A DNA stretch of 46,346 nucleotides from an uncultured bacterium (GCA_903864905.1 CAIPHR010000054.1:1-46346), one strand, 5' to 3'. Shown: positions 4,285 to 40,038, counted from the first letter of the stretch. The notes: a model not told the origin generated them from the sequence alone. Made by a program: numbers and translations.

Positions 4285-4311
4285 AAAAGATTATGATATT
4301 ATAGTTTCAAT

Positions 4312-6840: not shown

Positions 6841-6858
6841 CAGGTGTCAATTTACGCG

Positions 6859-6885
6859 AGGCGCATGAGCAATCATGCGCCTTTC
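6859..6885 (+). terminator. Intrinsic terminator
   Basis: aggcgcatga-gcaa-tcatgcgcct followed by T residues. Confidence 0.6.
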
Positions 6886-6963
6886 TGCATATATTAGTAG
6901 ATATTCTGTGCCCTTGATTTATTTCAAAAAAAATTATAAAATAGTCCCAATAATGTTCATTGG

Positions 6964-7182: not shown

Positions 7183-7209
7183 TTAGTGAGTGTTATTTAT
7201 TGCTATAGC

Positions 7210-7237
7210 GGTTCCAACTTCGTACCACAACCCGCAC
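7210..7237 (+). repeat. att-like junction site G1
   Basis: ggttccaacttcgtaccacaacccgcac. Confidence 0.9.
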
Positions 7238-9504: not shown

Positions 9505-9560
9505 AAGCGGATATTACCCCTTACTTCAATTCATTACAAGAACATGAATGTGTAATCAAA

Positions 9561-10616: not shown

Positions 10617-10710
10617 AATATATTCATATAAATGTTATATATCCGATTGTATACGATTATATCCGAAAAGTCAAGCTTACTAGATTAATGCCATTAGTGA
10701 TGCTAATGCA

Positions 10711-10737
10711 GTTCCAACTTCGTACCACAACCCGCAC
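10711..10737 (+). repeat. att-like junction site G2
   Basis: gttccaacttcgtaccacaacccgcac. Confidence 0.9.
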
Positions 10738-10819
10738 AATTATATATGGCGTTCAGTTATACGAATATGTCGTACAACTGAGAGTTGTAAATTCATCGAT
10801 TTTGTGCAATAATTTGGAC

Positions 10820-11107
10820 ATGTCAATAGCAGAAATACAGAAAAAAATACATCCAGTTCTCAAGTCATATGGCGTTACCTATGCGGGTATTTTTGGCTCT
10901 ATCTCACGTGGTGAGGATCGACCAGACAGTGATGTTGATATCCTAGTTAAGCTCGGTAAACCGATGGGAATGTTTTCTTATATGAAATTGATCGGAGCTA
11001 TTGAAGGTCTCTTGGGGCGTAAAGTTGACATGGTTACAGAGCAAAGCTTGAGTAAATTTGTTCGACCATATGTAATGCCAGAATTAAAGACTATTTATGA
11101 AGGATGA
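10820..11107 (+). CDS. MNT nucleotidyltransferase antitoxin (copy 1)
   Basis: FGSISRGEDRPDSDVDILV; LLGRKVDMVT; start placed at MSIAE. Confidence 0.9.
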   Translation: MSIAEIQKKIHPVLKSYGVTYAGIFGSISRGEDRPDSDVDILVKLGKPMGMFSYMKLIGAIEGLLGRKVDMVTEQSLSKFVRPYVMPELKTIYEG

Positions 11108-11420
11108 GAAGGTCTACATAGAACAGATGTTGGATTCGGTCTCGAAGATCGAAGCGTTCACTCATGGCATGAAGAGGGAAGATTTCATGAATGATTCGAA
11201 AACGCAAAGTGCCGTCATCATGCAGTTGACTGTGATAGGTGAATTGGTCAAGAAGCTTTCTTCGAAGACAAAGGAGTCGAGTGATATACCATGGAAAGAG
11301 ATTGCCGGATTTAGAGATCGAGCGATTCATCACTATTTTGGAATGGATCTGAATGTGATCTGGGATACTGTGGTCTTAGATGTACCAGTTCTGAAGGTGG
11401 CACTTATGAAGTTGTCATAG
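11097..11420 (+). CDS. HEPN/DUF86 RNase toxin (copy 1)
   Basis: IPWKEIAGFRDRAIHHY (RxxxxH); overlaps the MNT gene. Confidence 0.9.
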   Translation: MKDEKVYIEQMLDSVSKIEAFTHGMKREDFMNDSKTQSAVIMQLTVIGELVKKLSSKTKESSDIPWKEIAGFRDRAIHHYFGMDLNVIWDTVVLDVPVLKVALMKLS

Positions 11421-12899: not shown

Positions 12900-12986
12900 G
12901 AATTTAATTAGTTATGGTTGATAATGAGATTAAAGTTGGTGACATTTTACTCCTCGAAAATGTTTTGCACAAATTTTGTAATATTT

Positions 12987-13724
12987 TCATGGTGATTTCT
13001 GATATGTTTTCTTGGTAATCTCTCCCATGAATATGCTTGGTCGTGTCCATTCTTTGATCGGCTTTTCTTTTTCATAACGGCGAGCCAATTCTTTTGCCAT
13101 ATCACCCCGGATGACGATCTCCTTTGGAAAGCTGTGCGATATCCGTAGCATTCTCATGGCGTTGAAGAGGATTTGGTTGCTCCCTTTGGTAATGTACTTG
13201 CTGATGTAATATGCCAAGCGTCCAGATCCATTAGTTTTTGTCGCATCCATAAAGCCCTCTCCCCATAATTTAGCGAGGGTACGATCTTTTCGTTCATCTC
13301 CATGCGAAATACACCGTTTACCTTGGCGCGTATCACCGAGAGACAACGGCACGTTAAAGAGTAAGCCATGAAAGTGGATCCTTCCTCTTGGGGAGAGTTC
13401 GGGAATAAATAATGACTGCGCAAGAGGATATTTAGCTCGCAACCGCACTTGGAAACTGCGTAAGGAATTATTTGCATAGGAGGCATCTGATGCGTCGCCG
13501 TGAAAGGTGAGTGTGACCAGAAGCGGGCATCCATACTCTTCAAGAGCAGAAAACACCCTCCGCACACATATCTGCCTTGTCCTTCGAATATTATCGGGTC
13601 GCCTAAGGCCGTATATGGGATTCCTTCGTCTCGCAAAGTATACGCGCACTTTGCGCGGGTGCGGTTCCTTCTCAATCTTGGTGATTTCGACGATTTCTCC
13701 ATATTTCTTGTAAATGAAGTGCAT
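12987..13724 (-). CDS. HUH-type rolling-circle replication initiator
   Basis: Motif I LVTLTF, motif II RGRIHFHGLL, W-G-x-G-F, motif III YYISKYITK. Confidence 0.85.
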   Translation of the reverse strand: MHFIYKKYGEIVEITKIEKEPHPRKVRVYFARRRNPIYGLRRPDNIRRTRQICVRRVFSALEEYGCPLLVTLTFHGDASDASYANNSLRSFQVRLRAKYPLAQSLFIPELSPRGRIHFHGLLFNVPLSLGDTRQGKRCISHGDERKDRTLAKLWGEGFMDATKTNGSGRLAYYISKYITKGSNQILFNAMRMLRISHSFPKEIVIRGDMAKELARRYEKEKPIKEWTRPSIFMGEITKKTYQKSP

Positions 13725-13730
13725 AGTGAG

Positions 13731-13946
13731 TTACTTACAACTATGAGGGGATATCAAGTCAGGCGAAGCGCCGCCCGGAGCTTCGCATACCGGGACGGCG
13801 CCTTCTATCCTCGCAAAGGTTAAATACAACCGAGCGAATGAGTCCAGATATTCAATTGCCGTTTCAGCAGAAATGTCGACCCCATTTTCCTCTTTGAAGC
13901 TTTTGATGCAGTCTTGTATTAAGTTTTGCGAAAAAGTTAATGGCAT
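13731..13946 (-). CDS. Small conserved protein upstream of rep
   Basis: Homologous to 3471-3707 and in the same position. Confidence 0.75.
   Translation of the reverse strand: MPLTFSQNLIQDCIKSFKEENGVDISAETAIEYLDSFARLYLTFARIEGAVPVCEAPGGASPDLISPHSCK
13751..13805 (-). other. Candidate double-strand origin of element 2
   Basis: ACTTGATAT on the minus strand (13751-13759) matches the phiX174/pC194-type CTTGATA nick motif; adjacent GC hairpin 13765-13805. Confidence 0.6.
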
Positions 13947-14013
13947 GAAAAAACCCGATATTGGGTCGGGTTCATTATCATTCCTTGGCGTTACGGGATT
14001 GTACGGGTACGGC

Positions 14014-14928
14014 TTACAGATACTCTTTGTTTACATGCGCATAACCGGTTTTACCGGATTTAATGAACAAGAAATTGCTCACGCCAGCCTGTTTGCTCAC
14101 TTTGGTGTTAACATCGTTGCAGGCTCTGTACATTGACCGCCAACCTTTGTCATCATTCTGGAACTTATCGTTCAGAATATCAGTGTAAAACGATTGGGCG
14201 TCCAAGCCTTCGTTATTTCCAAAGATATATTCAAGGACGAAATGAGAATTTGGCTTATCGTTCTTTTGCTTTATTTTCACTACTTTGCCACCGATCTTCA
14301 ATTCACTTCTATCTGAGTCAAAATCATCGCGATTAACCTTTAACTTTGCTTCATTGGCAGGCTGCATCGTTTCAGTAGATTCCAATTCAATCGGAGCTTT
14401 CAAAACTAAAGATTCCGGTGGCTTCGTCATGTTATCAAGCAATCCCTTAACCAAAGCCGTGTGCAATTTTTCCATGTAATCGGCAACGTCTCCCATTGAA
14501 AATGAATATCGAACTCTAATCCAGACCACCTTGAGAAATTGCCATGCAGTGCCATCGTTGCTGTACGCCAGAGCTTGACCGGTCGTACAATCTTCTGAGG
14601 AATGATCTGGTGATTCCCAATACACTTTCATGGGAGTAAATATGTTTCGCTTGAGAATGTCGTAACAGCCGGAAAGCGAATGCTTCTTGATCTTGTATAC
14701 CACTTTTTCCTTGTCTTTTGGAGCCAACTTACCTTCCCAATCAATGATCATTATCCTACCTTCAACATCCTTCTTGTCCTTGTCGATTAGATCTTGAACA
14801 TCCTTCCGGTTATCAATTAGATCGAAGTATTCATAAACCTTCTTAAAAGAGCTGTAAAGTCTCTTGTTATTTTTGACTTCAAGAAATTCATTGTATTTTA
14901 GATTAAGCTGTGAGATCACGAGATCCAT
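14014..14928 (-). CDS. Hypothetical protein, possible C-terminal winged-helix DNA-binding domain
   Basis: 304-aa ORF; C-terminal WRSMYRACNDVNTKV...G.A.VN pattern. Confidence 0.55.
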   Translation of the reverse strand: MDLVISQLNLKYNEFLEVKNNKRLYSSFKKVYEYFDLIDNRKDVQDLIDKDKKDVEGRIMIIDWEGKLAPKDKEKVVYKIKKHSLSGCYDILKRNIFTPMKVYWESPDHSSEDCTTGQALAYSNDGTAWQFLKVVWIRVRYSFSMGDVADYMEKLHTALVKGLLDNMTKPPESLVLKAPIELESTETMQPANEAKLKVNRDDFDSDRSELKIGGKVVKIKQKNDKPNSHFVLEYIFGNNEGLDAQSFYTDILNDKFQNDDKGWRSMYRACNDVNTKVSKQAGVSNFLFIKSGKTGYAHVNKEYL

Positions 14929-14977
14929 ACCAATAGTTTACCATTATCAAAACAGCAGTAAAAACGAGTGAAAGTGG

Positions 14978-15273
14978 CGCCACCCACCCACTGCCTTTTC
15001 CGTGCAGGAATGCGTGAGTCGCGACTAACCTTTGTGGCTAAAGAATGACTATGGAAGCGGTGATGTCGCTTCAAAGAGAGCCTGTGGCGCGCCTTTCGCA
15101 CACATCCGTATGTTTCCGCGCATTCCCCCAGTTGCTAGTCGCAACAGGGGTGCGCTCTCAACATACCGATGTGTGCGAGGCGCGAATTACACTCCGTGAG
15201 TGAAGCGACACACACCGCTTCCTCTGCGCGACATCACGCATACCTGCACTCCAAAGTCAGTCGGAGGGTGGCG
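14978..15273. other. 296-bp foldback homologous to 3970-4284
   Basis: Nested inverted repeats; shares gtggcgcc...ggcgaa ends and internal ctgtggcgcgccttt. Confidence 0.75.
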
Positions 15274-15336
15274 AAGAATCTCTGTTGCACATCGCCCACA
15301 TAAATCCGTTTTTCTGTTATAATAATAAGTACTTTT

Positions 15337-16113
15337 ATGAAACCACACCTTCTCTTGGTTCACTCATTTCCAACTAACAGTATATTGCTTCGTGGATTAG
15401 AAGAATTTCTAGCTGATTATTTTACCGTCCACTTTATAGACCTCCCGGGATTTCATAAAGATATTCCGCCCCTTCAGGGTTCCATAACCTTAAGGAAGTT
15501 CTCGAATTATTTTGATCAAAAAGTCCAGGAATTAGATGCGGATGAATATGTGGTCGGTGGTGTCTCATTTGGTTTTCTGGTTATTAATAACGCGAAACTA
15601 GACAAGAGATGCAAAGCCATTTTGGCTATGGAGCCGTTCATAAATAACCAGTGTCTAAATCTCTCTCTATGGACAAAAGAAAAATACATGGCGATCACCC
15701 AGATCTTGGGACTAATCCATACTCTTGGTCTGGAAACGCATATTTGGAAGTCCGACTGGTTCAATAAATATTTACAGGAAGAGTCAGATTATCCCAAGGA
15801 AAGAGTCGATACCATAATAAATCATATCGATCCCAGAACATTCTTCGCGGTCACAAAGCTTTTATTGAGTTACAAAGACAATCCTAAGTTTCACAAACTA
15901 CCGTACTTTTTGGTAGGAAATTTCGCCGATAAAACTATTAACTTCGACAAAGTTGTGGAGATTTTTATTAAGAACCTACATGAATTGCATATCACATCTG
16001 AACCGATTGATCATTACCCAAAAGATCTGACAAAGAATTATTTTAAGACAAGAATACCGAATGAGCACATAGGTCGAATGCTAGCCTGTATTAAGGGAGT
16101 TGAAACGGGATAG
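15337..16113 (+). CDS. Alpha/beta hydrolase fold protein
   Basis: LLLVHSF, IDLPGF, nucleophile elbow GVSFG. Confidence 0.8.
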   Translation: MKPHLLLVHSFPTNSILLRGLEEFLADYFTVHFIDLPGFHKDIPPLQGSITLRKFSNYFDQKVQELDADEYVVGGVSFGFLVINNAKLDKRCKAILAMEPFINNQCLNLSLWTKEKYMAITQILGLIHTLGLETHIWKSDWFNKYLQEESDYPKERVDTIINHIDPRTFFAVTKLLLSYKDNPKFHKLPYFLVGNFADKTINFDKVVEIFIKNLHELHITSEPIDHYPKDLTKNYFKTRIPNEHIGRMLACIKGVETG

Positions 16114-16214
16114 GTAAATACTATTCGGATGTCATGCAAAGATCTAGGGTTGTTGAGATTTATGACGATGTTATAATATGCATGAATTATTATTCACTTA
16201 TAATTTGTAAATAT

Positions 16215-16640
16215 ATGCACAATGAGCAAATACCAAAACAAGCGGATAAATATGAGAAAAAAGTAGAGGTAGTATCAGAAGGAGGAGGAGAAAAAGGACC
16301 AGAGGTTCAGAATAAATCTTTTTTTGTTAATGGCTGTGAGCTAAATGCAAAGGTCTCTGTTGATCCTAATAATAATATTTCTTTCGCGGAAGATATTGAC
16401 ATGGGAGGGGATGTTCCAAACTTTCTAAGTTCTTTTATGGATGAATTCGACTTGAGAGTGTTATTTGATGCTGGAATACTTAAGAAAGGCAATCCTGCGA
16501 GTTGTAAAAGTAAATATGGTCTGGGTGGAGATGGTTATAGCGGCTACATACTTATTAATAAGGATGAGATTAATGATGCAGTTAAAAGTGGAAAGTTAAA
16601 GATTAGGCTGGATGAGGATGGTAACATAGAGGTTTTGTAA
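16215..16640 (+). CDS. Hypothetical protein
   Basis: Open frame after TGTTATAAT; start uncertain. Confidence 0.45.
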   Translation: MHNEQIPKQADKYEKKVEVVSEGGGEKGPEVQNKSFFVNGCELNAKVSVDPNNNISFAEDIDMGGDVPNFLSSFMDEFDLRVLFDAGILKKGNPASCKSKYGLGGDGYSGYILINKDEINDAVKSGKLKIRLDEDGNIEVL

Positions 16641-16758
16641 AACAAAAATATTTCATACTATGAAGTGTGGTCTTCATAAAGTCGCACCTGCCATTAGTAT
16701 GTACCAATGGAGTCGAGACAGGACAATATTCAGTTTCGTTATATGATAGAATAATTCC

Positions 16759-17094
16759 ATGGTTATATTTACAATAATTCCTGCTTGGATATGGATAGCT
16801 ATATCAGCAATCTTTTTCGCCGTTGGAGAATTTATATCAAAAAAATTTGCCATTAGTCCTGGATGGACGCTGTTTTTGACATTTATTATTGTAGATATAA
16901 TCAGCGCCTCAGCTTGGATACCGGCAATTGTTCAAAAAAATCAACTATCAATAACAGGTGTTGTTTGGTCAATTGTTTCTCTGATAGCTACAGTATTGAT
17001 CGGGATACTTGTTTTCAATGAGAAATTTACATTGACTCAATCAATTGGCTTAGCGATAGGGTTTGTATCAGTCATTCTGTTGAGCATGAAATAG
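16759..17094 (+). CDS. SMR/EamA-like small four-TM transporter
   Basis: Four hydrophobic helices, GILVFNEK motif. Confidence 0.75.
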   Translation: MVIFTIIPAWIWIAISAIFFAVGEFISKKFAISPGWTLFLTFIIVDIISASAWIPAIVQKNQLSITGVVWSIVSLIATVLIGILVFNEKFTLTQSIGLAIGFVSVILLSMK

Positions 17095-17162
17095 GAATGG
17101 CTGATATAGCGATATTTGGCCATTATTCCTCATTTTGCTATCACTTGGTCATGTTCAATGCC

Positions 17163-17195
17163 AAAAAGGTTCCAACATTGTCCCAGACGGCGCAC
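17163..17195 (+). repeat. att-like junction site, variant type shared with the tRNA-Leu array
   Basis: aaaaaggttccaacattgtcccagacggcgcac; reverse complement of the sites at 34074, 36129 and 38108. Confidence 0.85.
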
Positions 17196-18116: not shown

Positions 18117-18122
18117 CGTTCT

Positions 18123-18165
18123 CGCGCATCACATTCCCGAAAGGGATGGAGAATGCGGAGGCGAA
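18123..18165 (+). repeat. Remnant right arm of the element-1-type foldback
   Basis: cgcgcatcacattcccgaaagggatggagaatgcggaggcgaa vs 4244-4286, 2 mismatches. Confidence 0.85.
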
Positions 18166-21368: not shown

Positions 21369-21632
21369 ATGAAACCAGACGAGCCAAAGCTAGCATTTGA
21401 ACTTCCTCCTAAACCAAAGGTAGGTTTGTATGTTGATGATAGTAATTTATACAAGCGAGGAAAAGCCGCTGGTTGGATGACTGATTACAAGAAGCTTTAC
21501 AAATGGGTTGCGCAACTCAATACGGTAATTCATGCACGTATATATATGGGTAGGCCAAAATATGAACCTGCTAAATCTATCAATGAAGCATTGGCAAAAT
21601 ATTTCACCAAGATGTGGATAATGGTCAAATAG
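21369..21632 (+). pseudogene. Truncated NYN (PIN-like) domain protein
   Basis: VGLYVDDSNLY...DYKKLY; ends at the att arm after only 87 aa. Confidence 0.65.
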
Positions 21633-21651
21633 CCGTATTTAACGCAAGAAA

Positions 21652-21727: not shown

Positions 21728-21804
21728 AATGATTTGCATTGAGACCAAAAGGTTACAAATTGTCACCAGTTGAAAGTGTGGTGATTTTGTGCAATAATTC
21801 GGAC

Positions 21805-22092
21805 ATGTCAATAGCGGAAATACAAAAGAAAATACATCCGGTTCTCAAGTCATATGGCGTCACCTATGCGGGTATTTTTGGTTCGGTTTCTCGCGGTGAG
21901 GATCGTCCCGATAGTGATGTTGATATCCTAGTTAAGCTCGGTAAACCGATGGGAATGTTTTCCTATATGAAATTGATCGGGGCTATTGAAGGTCTCTTGG
22001 GGCGTAAAGTTGACATGGTTACTGAGCAAAGCTTGAGCAAATTTGTTAAGCCGTATGTTATGCCAGAATTAAAGACTATTTATGAAGGATGA
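21805..22092 (+). CDS. MNT antitoxin (copy 2)
   Basis: Differs from copy 1 by 2 residues. Confidence 0.9.
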   Translation: MSIAEIQKKIHPVLKSYGVTYAGIFGSVSRGEDRPDSDVDILVKLGKPMGMFSYMKLIGAIEGLLGRKVDMVTEQSLSKFVKPYVMPELKTIYEG

Positions 22093-22405
22093 GAAAGTCT
22101 ACATAGAATAGATGTTGGATTCGGTCTCGAAGATCGAAGCCTTTACTCCTGGCATGAAGAAGGAAGATTTCATGAAAGATTCGAAAACGCAAAGTGCCGT
22201 TATCATGCAGTTAACTGTGATAGGTGAATTGGTCAAGAAGATTTCTCCGAAGACAAAAGAGTCGAGTGATATACCATGGAAAGAGATAGCTGGGTTTAGA
22301 GATCGAGCGATTCATCACTATTTTGGAATGGATCTGAATGTGATCTGGGATACCGTGGTATTAGATGTGCCAGTTTTGAAGATCGCCCTCAAAAAATTGT
22401 TATGA
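22082..22405 (+). pseudogene. HEPN/DUF86 toxin copy 2 with nonsense mutation
   Basis: CAG in copy 1 is TAG at 22109-22111 (codon 10). Confidence 0.8.
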
Positions 22406-30547: not shown

Positions 30548-30805
30548 ATGAAAAAGGATATTCACCCAAAAAACTACAGACAGGTCATATTTGCTGATAA
30601 TTCGAGCGATATTAAGTTTCTCATTCCTTCAACAATTGAGACAAAAGCTACTGAAAAGTGGACAGATGGTAAGGAGTATCCTATTCATCATGTTGAAATT
30701 TCTAGTGCATCTCATCCTTTCTATACCAATCAAGAGAAGACTATCGATACTGCTGGTCGCGTTGAGAAGTTCAAGACTCGTCTATCAAAGGCAGCGAAGA
30801 AGTAA
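30548..30805 (+). CDS. rpmE2: 50S ribosomal protein L31 type B
   Basis: [27 protein letters not shown]; no Cys. Confidence 0.93.
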
Positions 30806-30811
30806 TGTATC

Positions 30812-30885
30812 TCGTCCTTTTGGCTACGCCAGTTTCCCCTTCGTGGCTACCGCCAGTCGGGAAAATGGCTTTGCCAAGCGGACGA
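30812..30885. repeat. Palindromic element (family with 40451 and 43783)
   Basis: tcgtccttttggc...gccaagcggacga. Confidence 0.75.
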
Positions 30886-30916
30886 TATTTGCATTATACT
30901 TAATTCACTTATTATC

Positions 30917-31903
30917 ATGAATTTAGAAATCTACAAAGCAAATCCAAAGACAGCATTTCTAGCGAGTACATATGAGAAGCTTGTTCGTGATGAGAATGAA
31001 GTGCGTAGTATGATGGAGAAAGATCCGTCGCTAAAAGAGATGGCTGAAGGTGATCTTGTTTCTATATTGGAGCAGAAGAATAGCCTAGAAGATCAGATGA
31101 AGTCTATTATTGAAAATGACGTGCAAGAAGAAGAGAAACCAAATGAAATTATATTAGAAGTTAGAGCTGGTGCTGGTGGAGATGAAGCTGCGTTGTTTGC
31201 TGCAGAGCTTCTCGATATGTATAGACGATATGCAGAGAATCGTGGATGGAGTACAAAGATCATCGATGAATCATCCAATGATATCGGTGGTTACAAGGAA
31301 GCTTCTATGGAGATAAAGGGTAAAGGCATATATGATGATCTGCGTTGGGAAACTGGAGTTCATCGTGTTCAGCGTGTTCCGGAAACTGAGAAGTCTGGTC
31401 GTATCCACACATCTACAGCATCGATCGCTATCATGCCTATACGCAAGAAATCAAAGTTTATTATCAATCCTGCTGATATAGAGATAGAGACATCTCGCGC
31501 AGGTGGAAAGGGTGGTCAAAATGTTAATAAAGTAGAAACTGCTGCGCGCGTTATCCACATACCTACTGGTATGGCTGTTAGATCTGTTGCGGAACGCAGT
31601 CAGTCTGCAAACAAAGAAAAAGCTATGCAGATCCTTACCGCTCGTCTAGAAGCTATGCAAGAAGAAGCAGAAGCCAAGAAATTCTCTGCTAACCGCAAGG
31701 GTCAGATCGGTACAGGTGACCGTTCAGAGAAAATCCGTACTTACAATTTTCCACAGGATCGTCTAACTGATCACCGCATCAAGGAATCGTGGCATACATT
31801 GCCACTTATATTGAAAGGGAATATTCAGCCTATTATCGATGCTCTGCATGAGTTTGAAAAAAGTGGGAAGGAGAGTAGTACGGCGGCAGTAGAGGAGGAG
31901 TAA
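30917..31903 (+). CDS. prfA: Peptide chain release factor 1
   Basis: EVRAGAGGDEA, GVHRVQRVPET, GGQ, RSEKIRTYNFPQ. Confidence 0.95.
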   Translation: MNLEIYKANPKTAFLASTYEKLVRDENEVRSMMEKDPSLKEMAEGDLVSILEQKNSLEDQMKSIIENDVQEEEKPNEIILEVRAGAGGDEAALFAAELLDMYRRYAENRGWSTKIIDESSNDIGGYKEASMEIKGKGIYDDLRWETGVHRVQRVPETEKSGRIHTSTASIAIMPIRKKSKFIINPADIEIETSRAGGKGGQNVNKVETAARVIHIPTGMAVRSVAERSQSANKEKAMQILTARLEAMQEEAEAKKFSANRKGQIGTGDRSEKIRTYNFPQDRLTDHRIKESWHTLPLILKGNIQPIIDALHEFEKSGKESSTAAVEEE

Positions 31904-32989: not shown

Positions 32990-33022
32990 TGTGCCCGGGG
33001 TGGGACAATGTTGGAACCTTTT
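32990..33022 (-). repeat. att-like distal site L1
   Basis: tgtgcccggggtgggacaatgttggaaccttttt. Confidence 0.88.
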
Positions 33023-33055
33023 TGATGTCAAATATGGCTATTTGACCATTATCCC

Positions 33056-33322
33056 CTAGATTATAGTGAGTTTCAAACCCAATCCAGAAGTAATTTTCTG
33101 GAGAAAAGAAAGGGTGGGATTCGTTCTACCAGATTCAAAACGTGCCAAGTTTGACTGGGTAATGCCCAATTTCATTGCCAACTCTTTTTGTGTAAGTTTC
33201 TTTTCAATCCGAGCTTTGACTAGCGCGTCATGAATCTTGAATTCAACCTCAAGACTATCGTATGCCTTTTTTTTGGCTGGATCCTTCAGAAATTCTTCCT
33301 CAAATTGTTTGAATGTTTTCAT
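33056..33322 (-). CDS. XRE HTH antitoxin (HigA-like)
   Basis: LTQKELAMKLGITQSNLARFESGRTNPTL. Confidence 0.88.
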   Translation of the reverse strand: MKTFKQFEEEFLKDPAKKKAYDSLEVEFKIHDALVKARIEKKLTQKELAMKLGITQSNLARFESGRTNPTLSFLQKITSGLGLKLTII

Positions 33323-33351
33323 ATTATTACCAGTATATCATATATGATATA

Positions 33352-33833
33352 CTATGCAAGCTCCATGACCTCTTTTTGCATTCGACGAGCGTAATTAATG
33401 TCTTTTAAGCTTATCTTCCAAGCCTTTTTTACAAAACCATGGATCACATATGCCTTATTTTTATGAAAAATATATAAAATTCTGACTCTTATCCTGCCCT
33501 GAGTCCTAAGAGCCCATCCACCATCTTCCCCCTGCCATATAAAGCCTTATTTTTGGCTACAAAACCGCGCTTCGTTCTCGCCATAATTCATTATGACTCG
33601 AACTCCAGCTTGTTTTTCGCCTAAAAATAAAGCTTTCCTGGTAGGGTACCACGAGATGGTGGATGGGCTCTAAGTTCAAACAAACCCTTACCTAAACTTT
33701 TAGAATCTGGCATATCTAACAGATGGCCATATTCTCCAAGAAGATGTAAACAATGTCTGACACGAGAAATCGCCAAATCATCAAGATTATTGATAAACTT
33801 ATCAACTTTTTCATTCCAAAAAATTATTTCCAT
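33352..33833 (-). pseudogene. RelE/HigB (Gp49-like) toxin interrupted by a MITE
   Basis: Removing the insert restores ...GLFELR-TQGRIRVRILYIF...HGFVKK...ELA*. Confidence 0.85.
33510..33670. mobile_element. 161-bp MITE
   Basis: Perfect 17-bp TIR gagcccatccaccatct; 3-bp TAA target duplication. Confidence 0.88.
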
Positions 33834-33884
33834 ATCTGCATGATACATCACACATCATAAAATGCAAAAAAGCACTGAATAATG

Positions 33885-33910
33885 GTGTCCACTTTATGGG
33901 GTACATATCA
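33885..33910 (+). repeat. Solo IS3-family terminal repeat
   Basis: gtgtccactttatggggtacatatca, similar to the IR at 20053. Confidence 0.7.
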
Positions 33911-34073
33911 GTACCCTTGGGTCTGGAATCTTTCCTTACAGTAACGGTACAGGTCTCACATTTTCTCGGAGCAGAGCTCCTCAAAAATATGTTCGACCTT
34001 TTCGATTCCCACTCGCAAAGCGAGCAGTCGCTTTGCTCCCGGAAAAATAGATGTATTTCATTTCGAATTTTTG

Positions 34074-34104
34074 GTGCGCCGTCTGAGACAATGTTGGAAC
34101 CTTT
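34074..34104 (-). repeat. att-like site L2
   Basis: gtgcgccgtctgagacaatgttggaaccttt. Confidence 0.85.
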
Positions 34105-34224
34105 CTTGCTATGAATATAGCATAAATTGGTAGAAGATGACCATTTTCCGGTATTTTGATCAAATTGCTGATTATCCAGAAATGAGTATAATTAGACTAT
34201 TATCATAAACATTCAACAAATTAT

Positions 34225-34839
34225 ATGACTATGGAAAAATTTCACCAAGGTGACCAAGTATTGGATAAGTATGACCGTCCGGAGGATGAACTTGAGACAC
34301 CTGAAGGTGCAGCTATAAACAAAAGGGATCGTGCGTTTAATGCAGAAGGTGGTTTTAGAAATCTATTGAGGTTGAAGATTGTTATTGAGGATTTGGTACA
34401 AGAAAATGGTTTCTTGGGCATACGATCTAAGCCAGATTTTATACAGGAGGTAATTGATGATCCAAAAGCACATGCCTATAGCGCCCTAGGTTTTGATATT
34501 CTTAAGAAAGAAATATCTGAGGAAGAATTACAGACAGCACTTAAGAAATTTTTGGAAGAAAGCAAAATTCCCAGAGCAGCTGAAATTGATGGATATTTAC
34601 CTACAATCATTGATTATGAAAGTACCACACAGTCGGAAGCTCTCAATGGATTAAGATCGATGCTTGAGGAGTGTAAGAAGTCTGCTTTAAGTGGAGACTG
34701 GGGATCATATTGTGAACAAGCAACTAAAGCAAAGTCGTATCTTCGAGGAATAGGGGACATGGTCGAGCTATGTTGTGGTACTGCTGTTGAAAATGACAGC
34801 ACGAGAAGTCTTCTCAAGGTTAATAAAAAGGGAGTATAA
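34225..34839 (+). CDS. Hypothetical protein
   Basis: 204-aa ORF with TATAAT upstream. Confidence 0.55.
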   Translation: MTMEKFHQGDQVLDKYDRPEDELETPEGAAINKRDRAFNAEGGFRNLLRLKIVIEDLVQENGFLGIRSKPDFIQEVIDDPKAHAYSALGFDILKKEISEEELQTALKKFLEESKIPRAAEIDGYLPTIIDYESTTQSEALNGLRSMLEECKKSALSGDWGSYCEQATKAKSYLRGIGDMVELCCGTAVENDSTRSLLKVNKKGV

Positions 34840-34880
34840 ACAGAAACTCGCAACCATATTTCAGATTGCGAGGGTAAATT

Positions 34881-34935
34881 GTGAAAGTTTCGAGCTTACG
34901 CTCCGGTTACTTCGCCGAGTGGACTGACCACTATT
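34881..34935 (+). repeat. 55-bp imperfect direct repeat (copy 1; copy 2 at 37181-37235)
   Basis: gtgaaagtttYgagcttRcgctccggttacttcRccgagtgg...gaccactatt. Confidence 0.75.
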
Positions 34936-35380
34936 AGCTTGCGAGCTTGCCGCAAAGCACCTTCTGGAGAGCCCCGGTGTTGGATTCCATGAATCCTTTC
35001 GACAAGCATTGTGAAGATCAATTCGAAATCATCCATATGATCACGCAAGTTTTGTCGCTTCAATCCCTTTAGTTTTTTGTAATCATCCGGAGTAATGCCA
35101 AACGTCGCTTTAGAAATTTCTACCGTTAAAATCTCATAATCTATCTGGTCTTGTGCACCTCGTTTTTTCCATTCATCGGTCAATTCTTCGCGAATAGCGG
35201 TATTGATTGAATAATACGTAACATACCTTCAGTATCAGCACAGTCGGTCTCATACATTTTTCCGTCTAGCGACTCTAATTTCAGTTGTCTACAAATTGTA
35301 GATAACTGAACATCACTTTCATTTTTTACCCTAGCCTTCATTGCAGTCCAATAAGCACTAGGTCTGAACATTATCCCCAC
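34896..35380 (-). pseudogene. Fragmented Bro-N family gene
   Basis: LRIIQSIP and TDEW...NLRDHM..ELIFTML fragments homologous to 17283-18116. Confidence 0.8.
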
Positions 35381-35392
35381 TTTTCCTTGACT

Positions 35393-35527
35393 TTAGTAGA
35401 GCTTTTTGCAATCAGTCATCCAGCCGGCGGCTTTTCCTCGCTTATATAAATTACTGTCATCAATGTAAATACCCACCTTTGGTTTAGGAGGAAGTTCAAA
35501 TGCTAGCTTTGGTTCGTCTGGTTTCAT
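35393..35527 (-). pseudogene. NYN-domain fragment, near copy of the start of 21369-21632
   Basis: MKPDEPKLAFELPPKPKVGIYIDDSNLYKRGKAAGWMTDCKKLY*. Confidence 0.8.
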
Positions 35528-35686
35528 TGGATTACATTTTCCAACTTATAAAAAAGAAATCAATCTTCTGTTAAGAATAGAACTGTGTCGTTGTGTACCA
35601 TAATACGATTTCCTGAACAGGACAGGATGTATTTGTCGGCAAAAAAGCCTGTCTCGTGACAGGCTTGTAGACCAACAGACATGGAG

Positions 35687-36016
35687 TCAATCGCCGCAAG
35701 TTACTGCGGGTGAAGGATTGTCAATAATGACTACTTCAACTCCACGATCTCGCAATAGTTCCAGGACGTCGTCGCCGACTCGGTTCATGCTCGACACGTG
35801 ATTTCTAACAGGATCACGGCGAGATATCATGGGTGTTTGATCGGCGGCGTTGTATCCTGTAGGGGTCGGTATGACGGGAAAAGTGATGTGATCCCAGACT
35901 AGCTCTCCTTTTTCAGTATCGACGGCGCACCATTTAAAATCATAAAGAAAGTTTGTGCCTTCGATCGTATCCTCGTAGTCGACGGGACCTTCGACGACAA
36001 TAACATTTTGTGACAT
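35687..36016 (-). CDS. Hypothetical protein
   Basis: 109-aa ORF with AAGGA upstream and hairpin downstream. Confidence 0.5.
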   Translation of the reverse strand: MSQNVIVVEGPVDYEDTIEGTNFLYDFKWCAVDTEKGELVWDHITFPVIPTPTGYNAADQTPMISRRDPVRNHVSSMNRVGDDVLELLRDRGVEVVIIDNPSPAVTCGD

Positions 36017-36100
36017 ATTAAATCCTTTTGAGAAGTTTGGGTTTTATCATTGCTACGGAATCTATGATAAACACTACTTTCATTTAGTTGTTTGTAAAGT

Positions 36101-36159
36101 GTGCCCACTTTATGGGCTACAGATCACAGTGCGCCGTCTGACAATGTTGGAACCTTTTT
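36101..36159. repeat. Solo IS3 end (36101-36126) abutting att-like site L3 (36129-36159)
   Basis: gtgcccactttatgggctacagatca-ca-gtgcgccgtctgacaatgttggaaccttttt. Confidence 0.8.
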
Positions 36160-36206
36160 AGCGTTAAACGCTTTCCAAAATAACTGATTTATGGGAATAT
36201 AGTAGC

Positions 36207-37184
36207 ATGAATACACTTGAAGGGTCGGTTATAGATATTAAACAGGAGGAAGATAAATCAGGACAAGCAGATCGTTTGGCAAAATTCGAAGATGTCCATG
36301 GCTTAAAACAGGCTGATTTTGAAGCATTTCTAAAAAATATTGGTCCATTTTGTGACCCAGACGGCAGACCTTTTACTATTCTCGATGGTATGGGCGGATA
36401 TGGAGATGTAACTTCGCATATTCTTGCGGAAGCAGGTAAACAAGGCGTAACACCAGATATCTATATTGCCGATGAAAGCATTAATCAATTGAATCGCGGT
36501 ATTTCAAGCAATACATTACCGGAAGATTTTCCTAAGGATCATCTTGTACTAACCGATATTCGCAAAACCCCATTTACCGATGAGACGTTTGATACCGTAG
36601 TCATAAAAATGGGAATTCACGAAGTGCAGTTGGAAGAGCAGACGAAAATCTTGCAGGAAGTTTTTAGGGTTCTCAAAGAGGGTGGTAAATTTGTTACATG
36701 GGAATTAGCATTTAGTAACAAAGAATCACAAAAAATATTTCAAGATATTATCCGCAAAAAAGATGAGATCGCTGGATTTACACAAATGGTAGAGAAAAGG
36801 TGGTTTCCGACCGAGGCAGAAATATTTGATTCGTTTGAAAAAGCTGGATTTGTAGATGTGAGTTCGCCGCATACGCTTGAACCAACTGTAAATTTAAGAA
36901 AGCGAGAATTTGAGCTAGCTTCAATCGAACGATCAAAAATAATGCACGAGAGAGGTGTTGTGACCCCGGAAGAAGAAGTTCAACTGGTAGAATTAGGTAA
37001 ACAAAGATGCAGTCAGCTAGTCGCATTCACGAAACAATATATGGCTTCAGTATCTAAGGAAATGAAAGAAGCTATGAATTATCGCGAGACTGAAGATAAT
37101 GTGATTTTTGAGCCTGAAAAGAAAATATTCGTTGGATATAAACAGAAACCCGCGATCATTGCTGACCGCGGGGAAAATCAGTGA
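36207..37184 (+). CDS. Class I SAM-dependent methyltransferase
   Basis: ILDGMGGYG, PFTDETFDTVV, EVFRVLKEGGKF. Confidence 0.85.
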   Translation: MNTLEGSVIDIKQEEDKSGQADRLAKFEDVHGLKQADFEAFLKNIGPFCDPDGRPFTILDGMGGYGDVTSHILAEAGKQGVTPDIYIADESINQLNRGISSNTLPEDFPKDHLVLTDIRKTPFTDETFDTVVIKMGIHEVQLEEQTKILQEVFRVLKEGGKFVTWELAFSNKESQKIFQDIIRKKDEIAGFTQMVEKRWFPTEAEIFDSFEKAGFVDVSSPHTLEPTVNLRKREFELASIERSKIMHERGVVTPEEEVQLVELGKQRCSQLVAFTKQYMASVSKEMKEAMNYRETEDNVIFEPEKKIFVGYKQKPAIIADRGENQ

Positions 37185-37230
37185 AAGTTTTGAGCTTGCG
37201 CTCCGGTTACTTCACCGAGTGGGAGGACCA

Positions 37231-37743
37231 CTATTCACATCTCCACAGCATTCCTGAACCTTGAATCGTCGGAGCCATATTGCATGAATCACCCGAGAAT
37301 CCCGACAGGTCACGGAATGAGGATTGGTCACCACTACAAACTGTGACGCAGACCATCTCTTTCAATAGTTTCGTAATGAAGACGACAGAATCGACATGAA
37401 ATGTCGCCTTCAGGAAGGAAACGACTTCTTCTAAATTCGGAATGGTTTGTTCACCGATTAGTTTGCATATGCAGTGTGTCCCCGATATTTTGTCGATGTT
37501 GACAAGGACAGCCCCGTCCTTTGTTTGAAGGATCGAATTTGTGAGCAAATGAACAATGTTGAGTTTCATCCGCTCAACACCATTAACATTTGTCAGAACA
37601 CCATTAACACGTATCTCAGTAATCACAAGTTTCTCCTGTTGTTTGTTTTGGTTAAATCTAGCTCTCAAAAGGCAATTTTCTACCTTTTCGGAGCTAGACT
37701 TAGCCGTTTCAATGTCCTTGACCTTCTGGAATAAGTATAGCAT
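37231..37743 (-). CDS. Hypothetical protein
   Basis: 170-aa ORF, no recognisable motif, start uncertain. Confidence 0.35.
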   Translation of the reverse strand: MLYLFQKVKDIETAKSSSEKVENCLLRARFNQNKQQEKLVITEIRVNGVLTNVNGVERMKLNIVHLLTNSILQTKDGAVLVNIDKISGTHCICKLIGEQTIPNLEEVVSFLKATFHVDSVVFITKLLKEMVCVTVCSGDQSSFRDLSGFSGDSCNMAPTIQGSGMLWRCE

Positions 37744-37922
37744 AGTGCAGTCTACTTGTCAATACTTTGACGATTCCGTCAACTATATGTCGCAGTATGG
37801 CTATGTTAAGCCGTTTCTCACGGGGGTTATTCGCGACAAGCGGTTCACGGTCGCGGCACCCTCCTTTGCTAAAGCTACGGAGGGCAAAGGAGGAAGCGTG
37901 TGTATGTCGGCCACGAATCCCA

Positions 37923-37964
37923 TGTCCACTTTATGGGGTACAGATCACAGTACCCGGGGTGGGA
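37923..37964. repeat. Solo IS3 end abutting a degenerate tRNA-Leu 3' copy
   Basis: tgtccactttatggggtacagatca-ca-gtacccggggtggga. Confidence 0.75.
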
Positions 37965-38003
37965 TCTTTCCCTACGGGAACGGTACAGTCTTCGCATTTT
38001 CAG

Positions 38004-38138
38004 CCATAAAAATGTCTGAAAATATGCTCAGACTTTTCGATTTCCACACGCAAAGCGCGCAGGCGCTTTGCTCCCGTAATATGATCTGAATTCCATTTCG
38101 ATTTTTTGTGCGCCGTCTGACAATGTTGGAACCTTTTT
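38004..38138 (-). repeat. 108-bp exact repeat (38004-38111 = 39621-39728) plus att-like site L4 (38108-38138)
   Basis: Direct comparison of the two copies; diverged third copy near 33911-34077. Confidence 0.9.
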
Positions 38139-38156
38139 GACAGCAAATGGTACGAA

Positions 38157-38720
38157 TTACAATAACTGATTAATATCCGCTGCAATTAAACGCAAATTTT
38201 TCTCGTCAATAGTATACCCCATTTCTTTAAAAACAACCTGTCTCACCCAACTTGCTTTTGGGTTATGTGAACCACAATAAACTAGCTCTTTATTTATTAA
38301 ATCATTATCAAATCTATTATGAATAATAATAGCATTGTTATAATATGCTACTTTAGATATTGTAAAATCAAATGTTTCTAATATATCAAAAACATTCGTT
38401 GAATTAGGCATCCAACAAATATCTATTTCCAGAGTCGATTTTTTATATTTGCAGAAATTTATATCGTGAATCTTTTCTGCATATCCTTCGCTTAACAATA
38501 TCCTGCCACATTGATTAAATATATTGTTATCAAAAATAAAAAAATCTAAATCCCGTGGTTCTTTGTTCTCAAAACAATTTCTAATTGCACCACCGGCTAA
38601 AATAATTAAATTATTTTTCCAAAGATCAACTATATCTTTGGGCAAATTGGATACAAATTTTGAAATCCGTTCAGTAAATAGTTGGTCATTTCTTAAAACA
38701 TAGTTTTGCATATTCAACAC
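38157..38720 (-). CDS. Nucleotidyltransferase (poly(A) polymerase/CCA head-like) protein
   Basis: LAGGAIRN...PRDLDFF...FDFTISK. Confidence 0.7.
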   Translation of the reverse strand: MLNMQNYVLRNDQLFTERISKFVSNLPKDIVDLWKNNLIILAGGAIRNCFENKEPRDLDFFIFDNNIFNQCGRILLSEGYAEKIHDINFCKYKKSTLEIDICWMPNSTNVFDILETFDFTISKVAYYNNAIIIHNRFDNDLINKELVYCGSHNPKASWVRQVVFKEMGYTIDEKNLRLIAADINQLL

Positions 38721-38735
38721 CCTACCAATTTGATA

Positions 38736-39125
38736 CTACTTGCTAGGAGTTTCTAATTTTTCAACTCCAACAGGAGTTAATTTATACTGACAGGTTATTA
38801 CATTCTTTGATTGGGAATGGTATTCATTTAGGATTTTAGCTTGAAACTTAACCGCGTATAAGTCGCCATTAAATAAATAGACACCTTCTGGATTTTCGAC
38901 AAAATTTTCTTTCCGTACTGAATTTATTGATACGTCATACAAACCCGAAGTAAAAGAATATTCGCCTAGCATTGAAAGTTTGCTTTCTGAGCATTCTAAT
39001 AATTGACCATTCCGGCAAATTATTTCCGCAAATTGTTCTACAGAAAGTTCTCTTTTTTCAACTTTCTCTGCATTATTTTCTGTCTTTATTTCTTGATTCG
39101 GAGTCAAACCTTCTTGATTTTTCAT
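38736..39125 (-). CDS. Hypothetical protein
   Basis: 129-aa ORF co-oriented with the downstream gene. Confidence 0.5.
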   Translation of the reverse strand: MKNQEGLTPNQEIKTENNAEKVEKRELSVEQFAEIICRNGQLLECSESKLSMLGEYSFTSGLYDVSINSVRKENFVENPEGVYLFNGDLYAVKFQAKILNEYHSQSKNVITCQYKLTPVGVEKLETPSK

Positions 39126-39451
39126 ATGATTTACTTTTTTAAGTGTTAATTTAATAATGACTTATATACCTTGGTAAAATTGTACATCCTAATGTTTTTT
39201 TGCGCAAGGTACGATATACACAGCTTTCTATCAACAAGTATACAACCATTCTGTCAAAAGAAAAAGCGCCGTACCCGAAGGTCGTGCGCTTGTTTAAAGA
39301 TTTGATAACCATGGGTATCTTCACCCATGAGTGATTTTTACGGAATCACACAACGTCTTTGGTTCACACGATTTTGGAAACCAAGTGGCGATAGACAAAC
39401 GCGGCAACAGCCGAGTCATAGAGCGGATTGTGCGTCCTGCCTTCGAACTCG

Positions 39452-39573
39452 CCGACGGACTTTGGAGTGCAGGTATGCGTGATGTCGCGCAGAGGAAGCG
39501 GTGTGTGTCGCTTCATTCACAGAATGTCATTCGCGCCTCGCACACATTGAACTGTACCCCATAAAGTGGACAC
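39452..39573 (-). repeat. Remnant of the element-2-type foldback (39452-39547) cut by an IS3 left end (39548-39573)
   Basis: Reverse complement is near identical to ~15169-15264; tgaactgtaccccataaagtggacac follows immediately. Confidence 0.85.
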
Positions 39574-39725
39574 GGAACAATCCCGCCCCCCAGTTTCATT
39601 TGGTAGAATTAAAAGACTAACCATAAAAATGTCTGAAAATATGCTCAGACTTTTCGATTTCCACACGCAAAGCGCGCAGGCGCTTTGCTCCCGTAATATG
39701 ATCTGAATTCCATTTCGATTTTTTG

Positions 39726-39809
39726 TGCCCGGGGTGGGAATCGAACCCACACTGCCTTACGGCAACAAAATTTTAAGTCTTGCGCGTATACCAATTTCGC
39801 CACCCGGGC
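39726..39809 (-). tRNA. tRNA-Leu(TAA)
   Basis: GCCCGGG acceptor stem, CAAGA-CTTAAAA-TTTTG anticodon arm, long variable arm, GTGGG-TTCGATT-CCCAC T arm. Confidence 0.93.
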
Positions 39810-39966
39810 GGGTGTAGTAAATGTAAATATTAAAAATCAAAATGGAAAATATACGAGTACGACATTTACAATTTTTCATTTTGACTTTTACATTTTCAAT
39901 TCACAATGAGCCCCATAAAGGGACTGCGATTTGTATCCAATCGCTATCGCTTTTGGACAAATCGGG

Positions 39967-40038
39967 AGGCCACGGCGAGAATCGAACTCGCGTATAGCTC
40001 TTTTGCAGAGAGCCGAATTACCACTTTTCTACGTGGCC
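39967..40038 (-). tRNA. tRNA-Cys(GCA)
   Basis: GGCCACG acceptor stem, GCTCT-CTGCAAA-AGAGC anticodon arm, U73 discriminator. Confidence 0.93.

Follow-up and report, generated by a model that had tools for sequence, protein, structure and literature searches.

A stretch of 46,346 nt from an uncultured bacterium (GCA_903864905.1 CAIPHR010000054.1:1-46346), hereafter called the window, carries at positions 32990-39809 an array of approximately 6.7 kb next to a tRNA-Leu(taa) gene, in which four short sites (L1 to L4) bound four gene-bearing units (E1 to E4). This Leu array is probably a composite island of integrase-less units that was built at tRNA-Leu(taa) by a family of large serine recombinases (LSRs) from Patescibacteria, two members of which, LSR1 and LSR2, are encoded in a second array at a tRNA-Gly gene of the same window.

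Sites and units of the Leu array

The outer limits of the array are given by a short duplication of the tRNA-Leu 3' end, as a first-pass annotation made from the sequence alone had proposed: the 16-mer TGTGCCCGGGGTGGGA occurs in the window only at 32990 (32990-33005) and at 39724, while 2e-5 copies would be expected by chance. Read in tRNA orientation, the sites of the array have the form GGTTCCAAC...GCAC. Their shared motif CAATGTTGGAACCTTT is present in five exact copies, at 33006, 34089, 36142 and 38121 on the plus strand and at 17165 on the minus strand inside the Gly array, and allowing up to three mismatches gives eight matches versus 0.71 expected, a number reached in none of 100 shuffles. 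Sites of the same architecture, differing in their middle part, are found in the Gly array at 7211, 10711, 11425, 19684 and 21653. Several details of the annotation held up in this comparison: the sites of both arrays read in the orientation of their tRNA, both tRNAs end in GCAC on the genome, and the arm past L1 (33030-33050) agrees with the reverse complement of the G5 arm (21620-21640) at 20 of 21 positions. L3 and L4 are indeed 2 bp shorter than L1 and L2 (26 versus 28 nt), and the 31 bp containing L3 (36129-36159) are identical to those containing L4 (38108-38138). L1 reads as an attR-like junction with the chromosomal flank, while L2 to L4 have only GCAC in common with tRNA-Leu.

No recombinase Pfam domain was found among the main open reading frames (ORFs) of the Leu array, and no recombinase or transposase domain in the 89 stop-to-stop frames of at least 40 amino acids between 32950 and 39830. 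Searches with tblastn using LSR1, LSR2 and both replication (Rep) proteins of the window against the array gave a best E value of 3.3 (Rep2), the best LSR match having E = 4.4. All three approaches thus agree with the annotated absence of an integrase, and a Phage_integrase or tyrosine recombinase domain was likewise found in none of the window ORFs scanned. Hence, the Leu array is a dependent part of an LSR system and not a complete system.

While four sites do bound four units, as annotated, the array really consists of three sub-blocks, of which one has the live tRNA-Leu as its anchor and the other two have pseudo-tRNA-Leu copies (Table 1). In tRNA orientation, the junctions follow one another as tRNA/D, L4/D', pseudo-tRNA 1/insertion sequence (IS) repeat, L3/IS repeat, L2/D'', pseudo-tRNA 2/IS repeat and L1/chromosome, where D, D' and D'' denote copies of one module. 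D' (38004-38111) equals 39621-39728 over 108 bp at 100% identity, and removal of the 157-bp D'/pseudo-tRNA module from the L4 region would give the L3 junction. The arm that follows both pseudo-tRNAs and L3, with the core GTACCCCATAAAGTGGAC, is present in four copies in the window (0.01 expected) and represents the terminal inverted repeat of an IS3-family element.

Table 1 Features of the Leu array and of the related parts of the window (tRNAs called with ARAGORN)
Feature	Position	Strand	Remarks
tRNA-Gly(ccc)	704-775	+	ARAGORN
LSR1	938-2395		Resolvase, Recombinase and Zn_ribbon_recom domains; followed by a G2P-type rolling-circle Rep gene
LSR1 element	955-7237
LSR2	11415-12899	-	Resolvase, Recombinase and Zn_ribbon_recom domains; followed by a G2P-type rolling-circle Rep gene; full length; inside the tRNA-Gly array
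LSR2 element	11452-17195
Leu-type P arm closing the LSR2 element	17168-17195	+	28/28 identical to the arms of L003 and of the L049 mini-cassette
L1 P arm	32991-33018	-	canonical, 28 nt; inner 14 nt = tRNA-Leu 3' end
Unit E1	32995-33910	-	IS3 repeat 33886-33910, HigB/Gp49-like toxin gene, HigA-like helix-turn-helix (HTH) antitoxin gene
HigA-like HTH antitoxin gene (E1)	33056-33322
HigB/Gp49-like toxin gene, split (E1)	33355-33546 and 33624-33854
Module D'' + pseudo-tRNA-Leu 2	33911-34073	-	D'' ~33969-34073; pseudo-tRNA 33911-33968; junction GTAC 33911-33914
L2 P arm	34074-34101	-	28 nt; TCA where the consensus has CCA
Unit E2	34078-36128	-	IS3 repeat 36102-36128, 109-aa ORF, gene remnants, 204-aa ORF, L2
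204-aa ORF (E2)	34225-34839	+
Broken Bro-N/PDC-S13 gene, two pieces (E2)	34896-35380
NYN-gene fragment (E2)	35393-35527
L3 P arm	36129-36154	-	26 nt; IS3-type repeat directly after
Unit E3	36133-37949	-	IS3 repeat 37923-37949, GC-rich block, two genes, L3
S-adenosylmethionine (SAM) methyltransferase gene (E3)	36207-37184	+
170-aa ORF (E3)	37231-37743	-
Module D' + pseudo-tRNA-Leu 1	37950-38111	-	D' 38004-38111; pseudo-tRNA 37950-38003; junction GTAC 37950-37953
L4 P arm	38108-38133	-	26 nt; CC of the conserved CCA missing
Unit E4	38112-39724	-	module D 39621-39724, 95% block, inverted IS3 repeat, two ORFs, L4
ORFs (E4)	38736-39125 and 38157-38720		no family found
Block (E4)	39452-39547		95% identical to 15169-15264 of the LSR2 element
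Inverted IS3-type terminal repeat (E4)	39554-39571
tRNA-Leu(taa)	39725-39809	-	ARAGORN; last ~20 nt = B-type left half-site; crossover zone GCAC 39725-39728 (plus-strand coordinates)
tRNA-Cys	39965-40038	-	ARAGORN

Anatomy of the attachment sites

The conserved 28-nt sequence at the sites, here called the P arm, follows the consensus RGTTCCAAC-N6-CCA-N6-(N71 N72 N73 C), its Leu/Gly version ending in GCAC. It resembles the T-loop and acceptor end of a tRNA with GGTTC placed 5 bp further out: on the left half-site, to which this comparison applies, GGTTC and the junction are 28 nt apart in P arms versus 23 nt in tRNAs (from T-loop G52 to the base after N73). For LSRs, one account describes that attB has the motif of the zinc-ribbon domain 5 bp nearer to its centre than attP does, that attB is approximately 10 bp shorter than attP, and that synapsis takes place only between attP and attB, two half-sites being required (PMC3783163). 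The same 5-bp offset of the outer motif is found here on the left half-site. On this reading, one and the same enzyme would use the P arm as an attP-type left half-site and the tRNA end as an attB-type half-site. The pseudo-tRNA arms inside arrays retain no more of the tRNA than its final 18-22 nt, in agreement with the size of an attB half-site. Symmetry arguments place the putative crossover dinucleotide within GCAC or one base beyond.

In complete elements, the right arm (P') is made up of the last ~40 nt of the element's own LSR gene, and P arm and LSR-encoded P' arm together provide two half-sites in an attP of about 55-60 bp. In the window, a P' profile built from 58 LSR-side arms (nhmmer) recovers the arms of LSR1 (E = 2e-6) and LSR2 (E = 5e-8) and no others, and the possibility that cassettes of the window have kept a complete attP was rejected on this basis. 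The IS3-type arm resembles an LSR 3' end at approximately 60% as judged by eye, a resemblance unsupported by the P' profile. Folding of the sites into attC-like hairpins was rejected as well, as five sites folded as single-stranded DNA left the conserved 28 nt unpaired, with z values of -1.96 to +0.75.

Both recombinases of the Gly array, called integrases in the annotation, are LSRs and not tyrosine enzymes according to their domains (Table 1). They are 59% identical to each other, and the closest solved structure to LSR2 is the SPbeta integrase (E = 6e-11). LSR1 ends with TTLCG-stop within an 18-nt copy of the tRNA-Gly end (937-954), while in LSR2 the codons of the last 11 residues belong to the Gly-type P arm at 11425-11451. 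Since the LSR genes read across the junction, the boundaries of the units were set at GCAC.

A family of large serine recombinases at tRNA 3' ends

Relatives of LSR2 are numerous, with 2,628 found at E <= 1e-20 among 8,000 scored candidates, and those carrying a name belong to Patescibacteria, Parcubacteria or Zambryskibacteria. For the analysis of genomic context, genomes were scanned with an alignment of 13 LSRs, and the best 80 of 567 confirmed loci were kept (L001-L080), nearly all from Patescibacterial metagenome-assembled genomes. In 58 of these 80 loci, a tRNA gene on the opposite strand adjoins the end of the LSR (start -40 to +60 nt from the end of the LSR match), namely tRNA-Gln (34), Ser (8), Leu (4), Tyr, Lys and Ile (3 each) as well as Val, Pro and Trp (1 each), and at least 15 anticodon types are targeted across the loci. 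Several of the other 22 lie next to degenerate tRNA ends, P-arm-like sequences or an IS end, and in seven of them (L022, L064, L068, L071, L075, L001, L010) the contig extends at most 134 nt past the end of the LSR match.

P arms were defined strictly as the core motif [AGT]GTTCCAA[CT] outside LSR ORFs plus CCA at positions 16-18. The core motif alone is found 84 times in tRNA orientation versus 25 times on the opposite strand of the 80 loci, while the strict definition yields 49 P arms in 30 loci and none on the other strand. In loci with an adjoining tRNA, 34 of 35 P arms lie on the LSR side. Positions 25-28 equal the last 4 nt of the adjoining tRNA in 30 of these 35 arms, the 4-mers being GCAC, CAGC, CCGC, CGAC, CCAC and CAAC; the five mismatching arms comprise a degenerate one, three length or sequence variants in L016 and a false match beyond the tRNA. 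As the end of the P arm co-varies with the end of the tRNA, the crossover is placed in this 4-nt zone, at the discriminator base, so that integration does not truncate the tRNA. Nine loci have at least two P arms, and three loci have at least three. L024 has eight full P arms at a spacing of 360-1400 bp with one to three small ORFs per cassette. Arrays of LSR-less cassettes recur in the family, and tandem att-bounded units, some of them without an LSR, are present in L024, L016 and L011.

The C-terminal tails of 120 LSR homologues (P0001-P0120) correspond to reverse-translated tRNA 3' ends (motifs DSNP, DSNQ, ESNP) or to P arms (xVWxxVGT). Throughout this set, the LSR gene crosses the crossover, its last 2-40 residues being encoded by the adjoining arm, whether tRNA, pseudo-tRNA or P arm, and the C-terminus of the protein therefore changes with the integration state.

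Despite carrying this LSR family, L002, L047, L060 and L063 are labelled Chlorobiaceae, Chitinophagaceae, Bdellovibrionales or Bathyarchaeia, and L047 lies in a 4.7-Mb chromosome with two P-arm-like sites. Binning contamination could account for these labels, as could transfer beyond Patescibacteria.

Literature searches, which covered main texts and a minority of subscription journals, returned no description of a Patescibacterial LSR family at tRNA ends, and no paper within this coverage combined "Patescibacteria" with "large serine recombinase". The family is widespread and apparently undescribed.

A likely enzyme for the Leu array

LSR2 is located 22 kb from the Leu array and is likely its cognate enzyme, judging from its closest relatives. 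In a FastTree phylogeny of 71 of the 80 loci and the two window LSRs (stops, Ns or short matches led to the exclusion of nine loci), LSR2 and L001-L003 form one clade. The LSRs of L002 and L003 are 96% identical to LSR2 and both abut tRNA-Leu(taa) plus tRNA-Cys. Past tRNA-Cys, L003 is syntenic with the window (infB, DUF4446 and aminotransferase genes at 66-73% nucleotide identity). Its LSR-Rep module is 88% identical to 11448-13945, and homology between the L003 element and the LSR2 element ends at GCAC on both sides, which identifies the LSR2-type element as a discrete unit in two attachment contexts. Behind the L003 element lies the same module of D, pseudo-tRNA and IS repeat, and next comes a Bro-N gene that, unlike its broken counterpart in E2, is intact. 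L001, found in the same record as P0001, encodes an LSR with 94% identity to LSR2 that abuts a pseudo-tRNA-Leu/D module; its positions 2349-2467 match 37950-38067 of the Leu array at 97% identity, and translation of 37968-38006 gives the tail of P0001. P0002 (85% identical to LSR2) ends in CPGWESNPH, the translation of the tRNA-Leu end, and the same peptide, encoded by 39726-39752 of the window, is the C-terminal tail of both P0002 and L003. All four relatives of LSR2 at 85% identity or above are therewith attached to tRNA-Leu-type arms.

The combination of a Leu-type P arm and an LSR2-type P' arm was seen in three places: the window element, L003 and a mini-cassette of L049. In the latter locus, a distant LSR (49%) resides on tRNA-Leu(taa), and behind its element follows an LSR-less mini-cassette of ~950 bp, which starts with 41 nt of an LSR2-type 3' end and ends with the identical Leu-type arm; non-autonomous derivatives with both half-sites hence exist. 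The sister of LSR1, L020, resides on tRNA-Lys(ttt), which also ends in GCAC, and uses a Gly-type arm. By sequence, cross-use among tRNAs ending in GCAC is plausible, and it could explain the place of the LSR2 element in the Gly array.

The proposal of an orphan array therefore stands in part: the Leu array lacks an integrase and shares its site family with the Gly array, but it is not a true orphan, as the LSR2 element ends in a Leu-type arm and its relatives reside on tRNA-Leu(taa). The two options offered for it, decay or service in trans, were the right pair. A tyrosine integrase responsible for the island in relatives had been named as a finding at odds with the proposal; relatives do keep a recombinase at tRNA-Leu(taa), but this is a serine enzyme of the same system, which confirms the idea of a shared system instead of refuting it.

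Origin of the array and alternative explanations

A complete element consists of P' arm, LSR gene, rolling-circle Rep gene, cargo and 28-nt P arm, in this order. In the proposed scheme, the enzyme would join the P arm/P' site to the last ~20 nt of the tRNA gene by a crossover inside the 4 nt common to both partners, here GCAC (discriminator A plus C), so that the tRNA stays whole. Newcomers would enter at the tRNA-proximal junction and push older elements outward, so that at each internal junction a P arm would border on the unit next to it. The four Leu units, we infer, are tails of such elements, consisting of cargo and P arm, that may have lost the LSR-Rep head and the P' arm. The matching enzyme would come from the LSR2 clade, whose element is found here in the array of a tRNA-Gly likewise ending in GCAC and at tRNA-Leu(taa) in relatives. 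The Leu array looks mostly decayed, as indicated by TCA for CCA in L2, the short L3 and L4, the split higB gene, the Bro-N/PDC-S13 gene in two pieces and the absence of P' arms. Signs of activity are the identical copies of D/D' and L3/L4, which point to recent events, together with the canonical L1 and the full-length LSR2. Any remaining movement is less likely to concern single cassettes than whole blocks, which would extend from L1 to a tRNA or pseudo-tRNA junction and be mobilised by LSR2 in trans.

Several points weigh against this scheme. With the 58-arm profile, no LSR-type P' arm was detected at the Leu-array or other cassette junctions of the window, and three of the four Leu P arms deviate from the consensus. 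Among 35 core matches without CCA in the 80 loci, about three look like degenerate arms and none is a 26-nt arm. As canonical LSRs pair only attP with attB, insertion beside an occupied tRNA junction is not standard LSR behaviour. The identity of D and D' over 108 bp points to a recent duplication or homologous exchange and not to site-specific insertion, and the arm in E1 to E3 is an IS3-family repeat, showing that another mobile element helped to shape the ends of the units. LSR2 itself resides on a Gly-type junction and not on tRNA-Leu, its assignment to the Leu array resting on homologues; recombination of Leu-type sites by LSR2 is a prediction on a comparative basis, such as the GCAC-bounded ends shared with L003.

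A more dynamic alternative would be an active integron-like platform, in which the P arm alone serves as cassette site and LSR2 or LSR1 capture, excise and reshuffle single cassettes in trans, with arbitrary sequence across the crossover. Junctions that are exact to the 4-nt zone despite diverse right-hand sequences would agree with this, as would the eight full P arms with small-ORF cassettes in L024, the recurrence of the same arm types with different cargo, the 31-bp identity of L3 and L4 and the 108-bp identity of D and D' as signs of recent events, two intact LSRs in one window, the Leu-type arm within the Gly array and the use of a Gly-type arm at tRNA-Lys(ttt) by the LSR1 sister. However, no cassette was found twice with both ends alike (the MNT/HepT copies of the Gly array share the coding part only and the higBA genes of L069 have no P arm), three of the four Leu P arms are off consensus, and known LSRs require two half-sites. 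Moreover, genes lie in both orientations and a promoter-like hexamer pair, read by eye, precedes one of them, unlike in integron cassettes. We therefore regard such a platform as possible, albeit unlikely. The broader version of this idea, a serine-recombinase counterpart of integrons in Patescibacteria in which one 28-nt arm would mark the cassette, 4-14 nt by the crossover would pick the tRNA and enzymes would serve several loci or arrays in trans, is likewise doubtful.

The IS3 repeats raise another explanation, namely that an LSR made only the outer junctions while the inner repeats and boundaries arose secondarily from IS3-family insertions close to the att junction, adjacent deletions, tandem duplication and homologous recombination among shared modules. 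The repeat is found after pseudo-tRNA 1, L3 and pseudo-tRNA 2, with a fourth, inverted copy in E4. An intact IS3-family element with an rve-type OrfB (11470-12372) lies in L051 at exactly this junction, between the tRNA side and the LSR, and in L010 (6420-6548) the LSR is adjoined by the same repeat and by what is left of a similar coding region, its 3' end, before the contig stops; both contigs break inside the IS. The repeat also follows a P arm in L018 and the pseudo-tRNA in L003. The complete identity of D and D', the correspondence of L3 to the L4 region without the 157-bp module and cargo fragments common to both arrays would fit as well. In contrast, GCAC forms the exact end of each of the four P arms and it is always the same ~25-27 nt of the IS repeat that have been kept, which is not expected from random deletions, and arrays of full P arms without the IS repeat exist elsewhere, for example in L024 and L016; a purely secondary origin of the inner boundaries is thus quite improbable. 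No transposase gene for the solo IS3-type repeats was found among the Leu-array frames of at least 40 amino acids. Finally, the sites might belong to another enzyme encoded outside the window, a tyrosine integrase or Xer-type recombinase, with the LSRs nearby by coincidence. Only 46 kb of the genome are visible, and the first bases of L2, GGTGCGC, are reminiscent of a dif arm. Nevertheless, the scanned window ORFs lack a tyrosine recombinase domain, the LSR genes of the window overlap the junction, tRNA genes adjoin the LSR in 58 of 80 loci, and P arms lie on the LSR side in 34 of 35 cases with none on the other strand, which leaves this explanation with hardly any credibility. On balance, the Leu island is read as a partly decayed composite of LSR elements.

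Cargo and recurrent modules

The higBA unit E1 has 90% nucleotide identity to 4539-5085 of L069, where the genes lie behind tRNA-Arg(gcg) without a P arm. The L069 unit is consequently uninformative. The HigB/Gp49-like gene of E1 is split by a palindromic insert of ~165 bp (33506-33674, 70% inverted self-match), which is absent from the L069 homologue. A 100-bp module at 81% identity (34835-34935 versus 37137-37235) is shared by the 3' ends of the 204-aa ORF and the methyltransferase gene, two unrelated genes on the plus strand. Several ORFs of the array could be assigned to no family. In a defence-system scan, the cargo yielded nothing beyond matches to HTH proteins, a mad2 methyltransferase match that was weak (E = 1.8e-5) and the two PDC-S13/Bro-N pieces.

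GC-rich, hairpin-rich non-coding blocks are common to elements and cassettes of the window (14960-15330, 39340-39550, 37780-37925, 4241-4286, 18120-18165) and are also seen in L049 (6102-6226) and L003 (1-60). They gave no Rfam match, and a search of the repeated modules for Rfam-type RNA families matched only the three tRNAs. These blocks could be origins for the rolling-circle Rep or small RNAs. For the D/pseudo-tRNA module, tandem ancestral tRNA copies, a mini-cassette with an attB-like site and the tail of a lost element were considered as possible origins. A further recurrent module behind tRNAs consists of a 130-180-bp spacer, often with an inverted partial tRNA copy, and a direct 16-18-nt copy of the tRNA 3' end. 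At the tRNA-Gly of the window (776-954), LSR1 is attached to this copy and not to the live tRNA; in the loci, the module is found at 5 of 120 tRNAs, at 131-168 nt, namely in L017 (Leu, 1700-1930), L034 (Tyr), L035 (Thr and Met) and L036 (Leu). Possible roles are that of a landing pad and that of a tail left behind by a lost element.

Cargo of the Gly array (7339-10616, 10688-11420, 21739-22405) includes an AEP-TOTE primase/helicase fusion, a Fic protein and two MNT/HepT toxin-antitoxin pairs. The latter are 92% identical over 10798-11418 and 21783-22403, which comprise the coding part only, and cassette-level mobility as deduced from these copies was rejected for this reason. Elsewhere in the window, a release-factor gene (30591-31903; PCRF and RF-1 domains) has a start that corresponds to position 42 of the profile and shares an overlap with an ORF upstream of it in a different frame, which looks like the usual programmed frameshift of prfB.

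Comparison with known systems

In architecture, the Leu island is SCC-like rather than integron-like. Staphylococcal cassette chromosome (SCC) elements with their CcrAB or CcrC LSRs likewise insert at the 3' end of a conserved gene, stack in tandem with internal att boundaries and include att-bounded units without recombinase. For composite SCC islands, one report describes the oldest unit as outermost, internal att boundaries as kept and ccr-less att-bounded units as existing (PMC13739063). Tandem att-bounded units at one site, some of them without an LSR, are found in both the Leu and the Gly array. In contrast to SCC, the targets are tRNA 3' ends and not the 3' end of rlmH, the T-arm mimic has a 5-bp shift, the crossover falls within the LSR gene, the elements include a rolling-circle Rep and the hosts are Patescibacterial; the likeness is one of architecture, taken from descriptions. 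Tycheposons of Prochlorococcus are similar in that they lie next to tRNAs, where they build genomic islands, possess replication genes and are arranged in tandem along with partial tRNA copies and degenerate remnants. Of 937 tycheposons, 910 are reported with tyrosine recombinases and the other 27 with a large serine recombinase (bioRxiv 10.1101/2020.12.28.424599). Their junctions are partial tRNAs, whereas those studied here are mostly dedicated 28-nt P arms sharing 4-14 nt with the tRNA; as possible separators of units, the Leu array has two pseudo-tRNA-Leu fragments and one 16-bp copy, next to L2 to L4 with only GCAC in common with the tRNA. Integrase family, Rep type and host phylum differ too, as far as descriptions can be compared.

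The annotation had drawn an analogy to clusters of attC sites lacking integron-integrases (CALINs). Like these, the Leu array is a series of short gene units, each ending in a conserved site, without a nearby recombinase and with a related, recombinase-bearing array elsewhere in the genome. The likeness holds for the site cluster as such, with four sites in 6.7 kb and no integrase nearby, but no IntI was found among the scanned window ORFs, the sites do not fold like attC and rather read as half of a double-stranded LSR att site, gene orientation is mixed, and a tRNA takes the place of attI as anchor. Hence, the comparison is an analogy only. With the serine integrases of phages (LI/A118, Bxb1, phiC31, SPbeta), the family shares the domain set, the 5-bp offset between the left half-sites of attP and attB and, in complete elements, an attP of ~55-60 bp defined by P' arm and P arm. 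It differs from them by its tandem arrays with one conserved half-site at internal junctions, by the use of the extreme 3' end of the tRNA and by a C-terminal tail that varies with the integration state.

Significance

Patescibacteria, the candidate phyla radiation, have tiny genomes, and to our knowledge few mobile elements have been described from them. The LSR family appears to be a main builder of Patescibacterial genomic islands, seeded at many tRNA genes. Its site logic is unusual, combining a mimic of the tRNA end in shifted register, a crossover at the discriminator base that spares the tRNA and an integrase gene lying across its own crossover. The integrase-less arrays raise the question whether a serine integrase can act on one conserved half-site, or on several tRNA loci through a common core of 4 nt, and a true counterpart of integrons, should it exist, would constitute a naturally retargetable LSR system. 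What the Leu array brings to light is thus more than a lone orphan: it exposes a large LSR family with readable att logic and, in the same window, an enzyme that likely acts in trans. As serine integrases are sought-after tools for genome engineering, the family supplies natural, computationally readable attP/attB pairs for many such enzymes.

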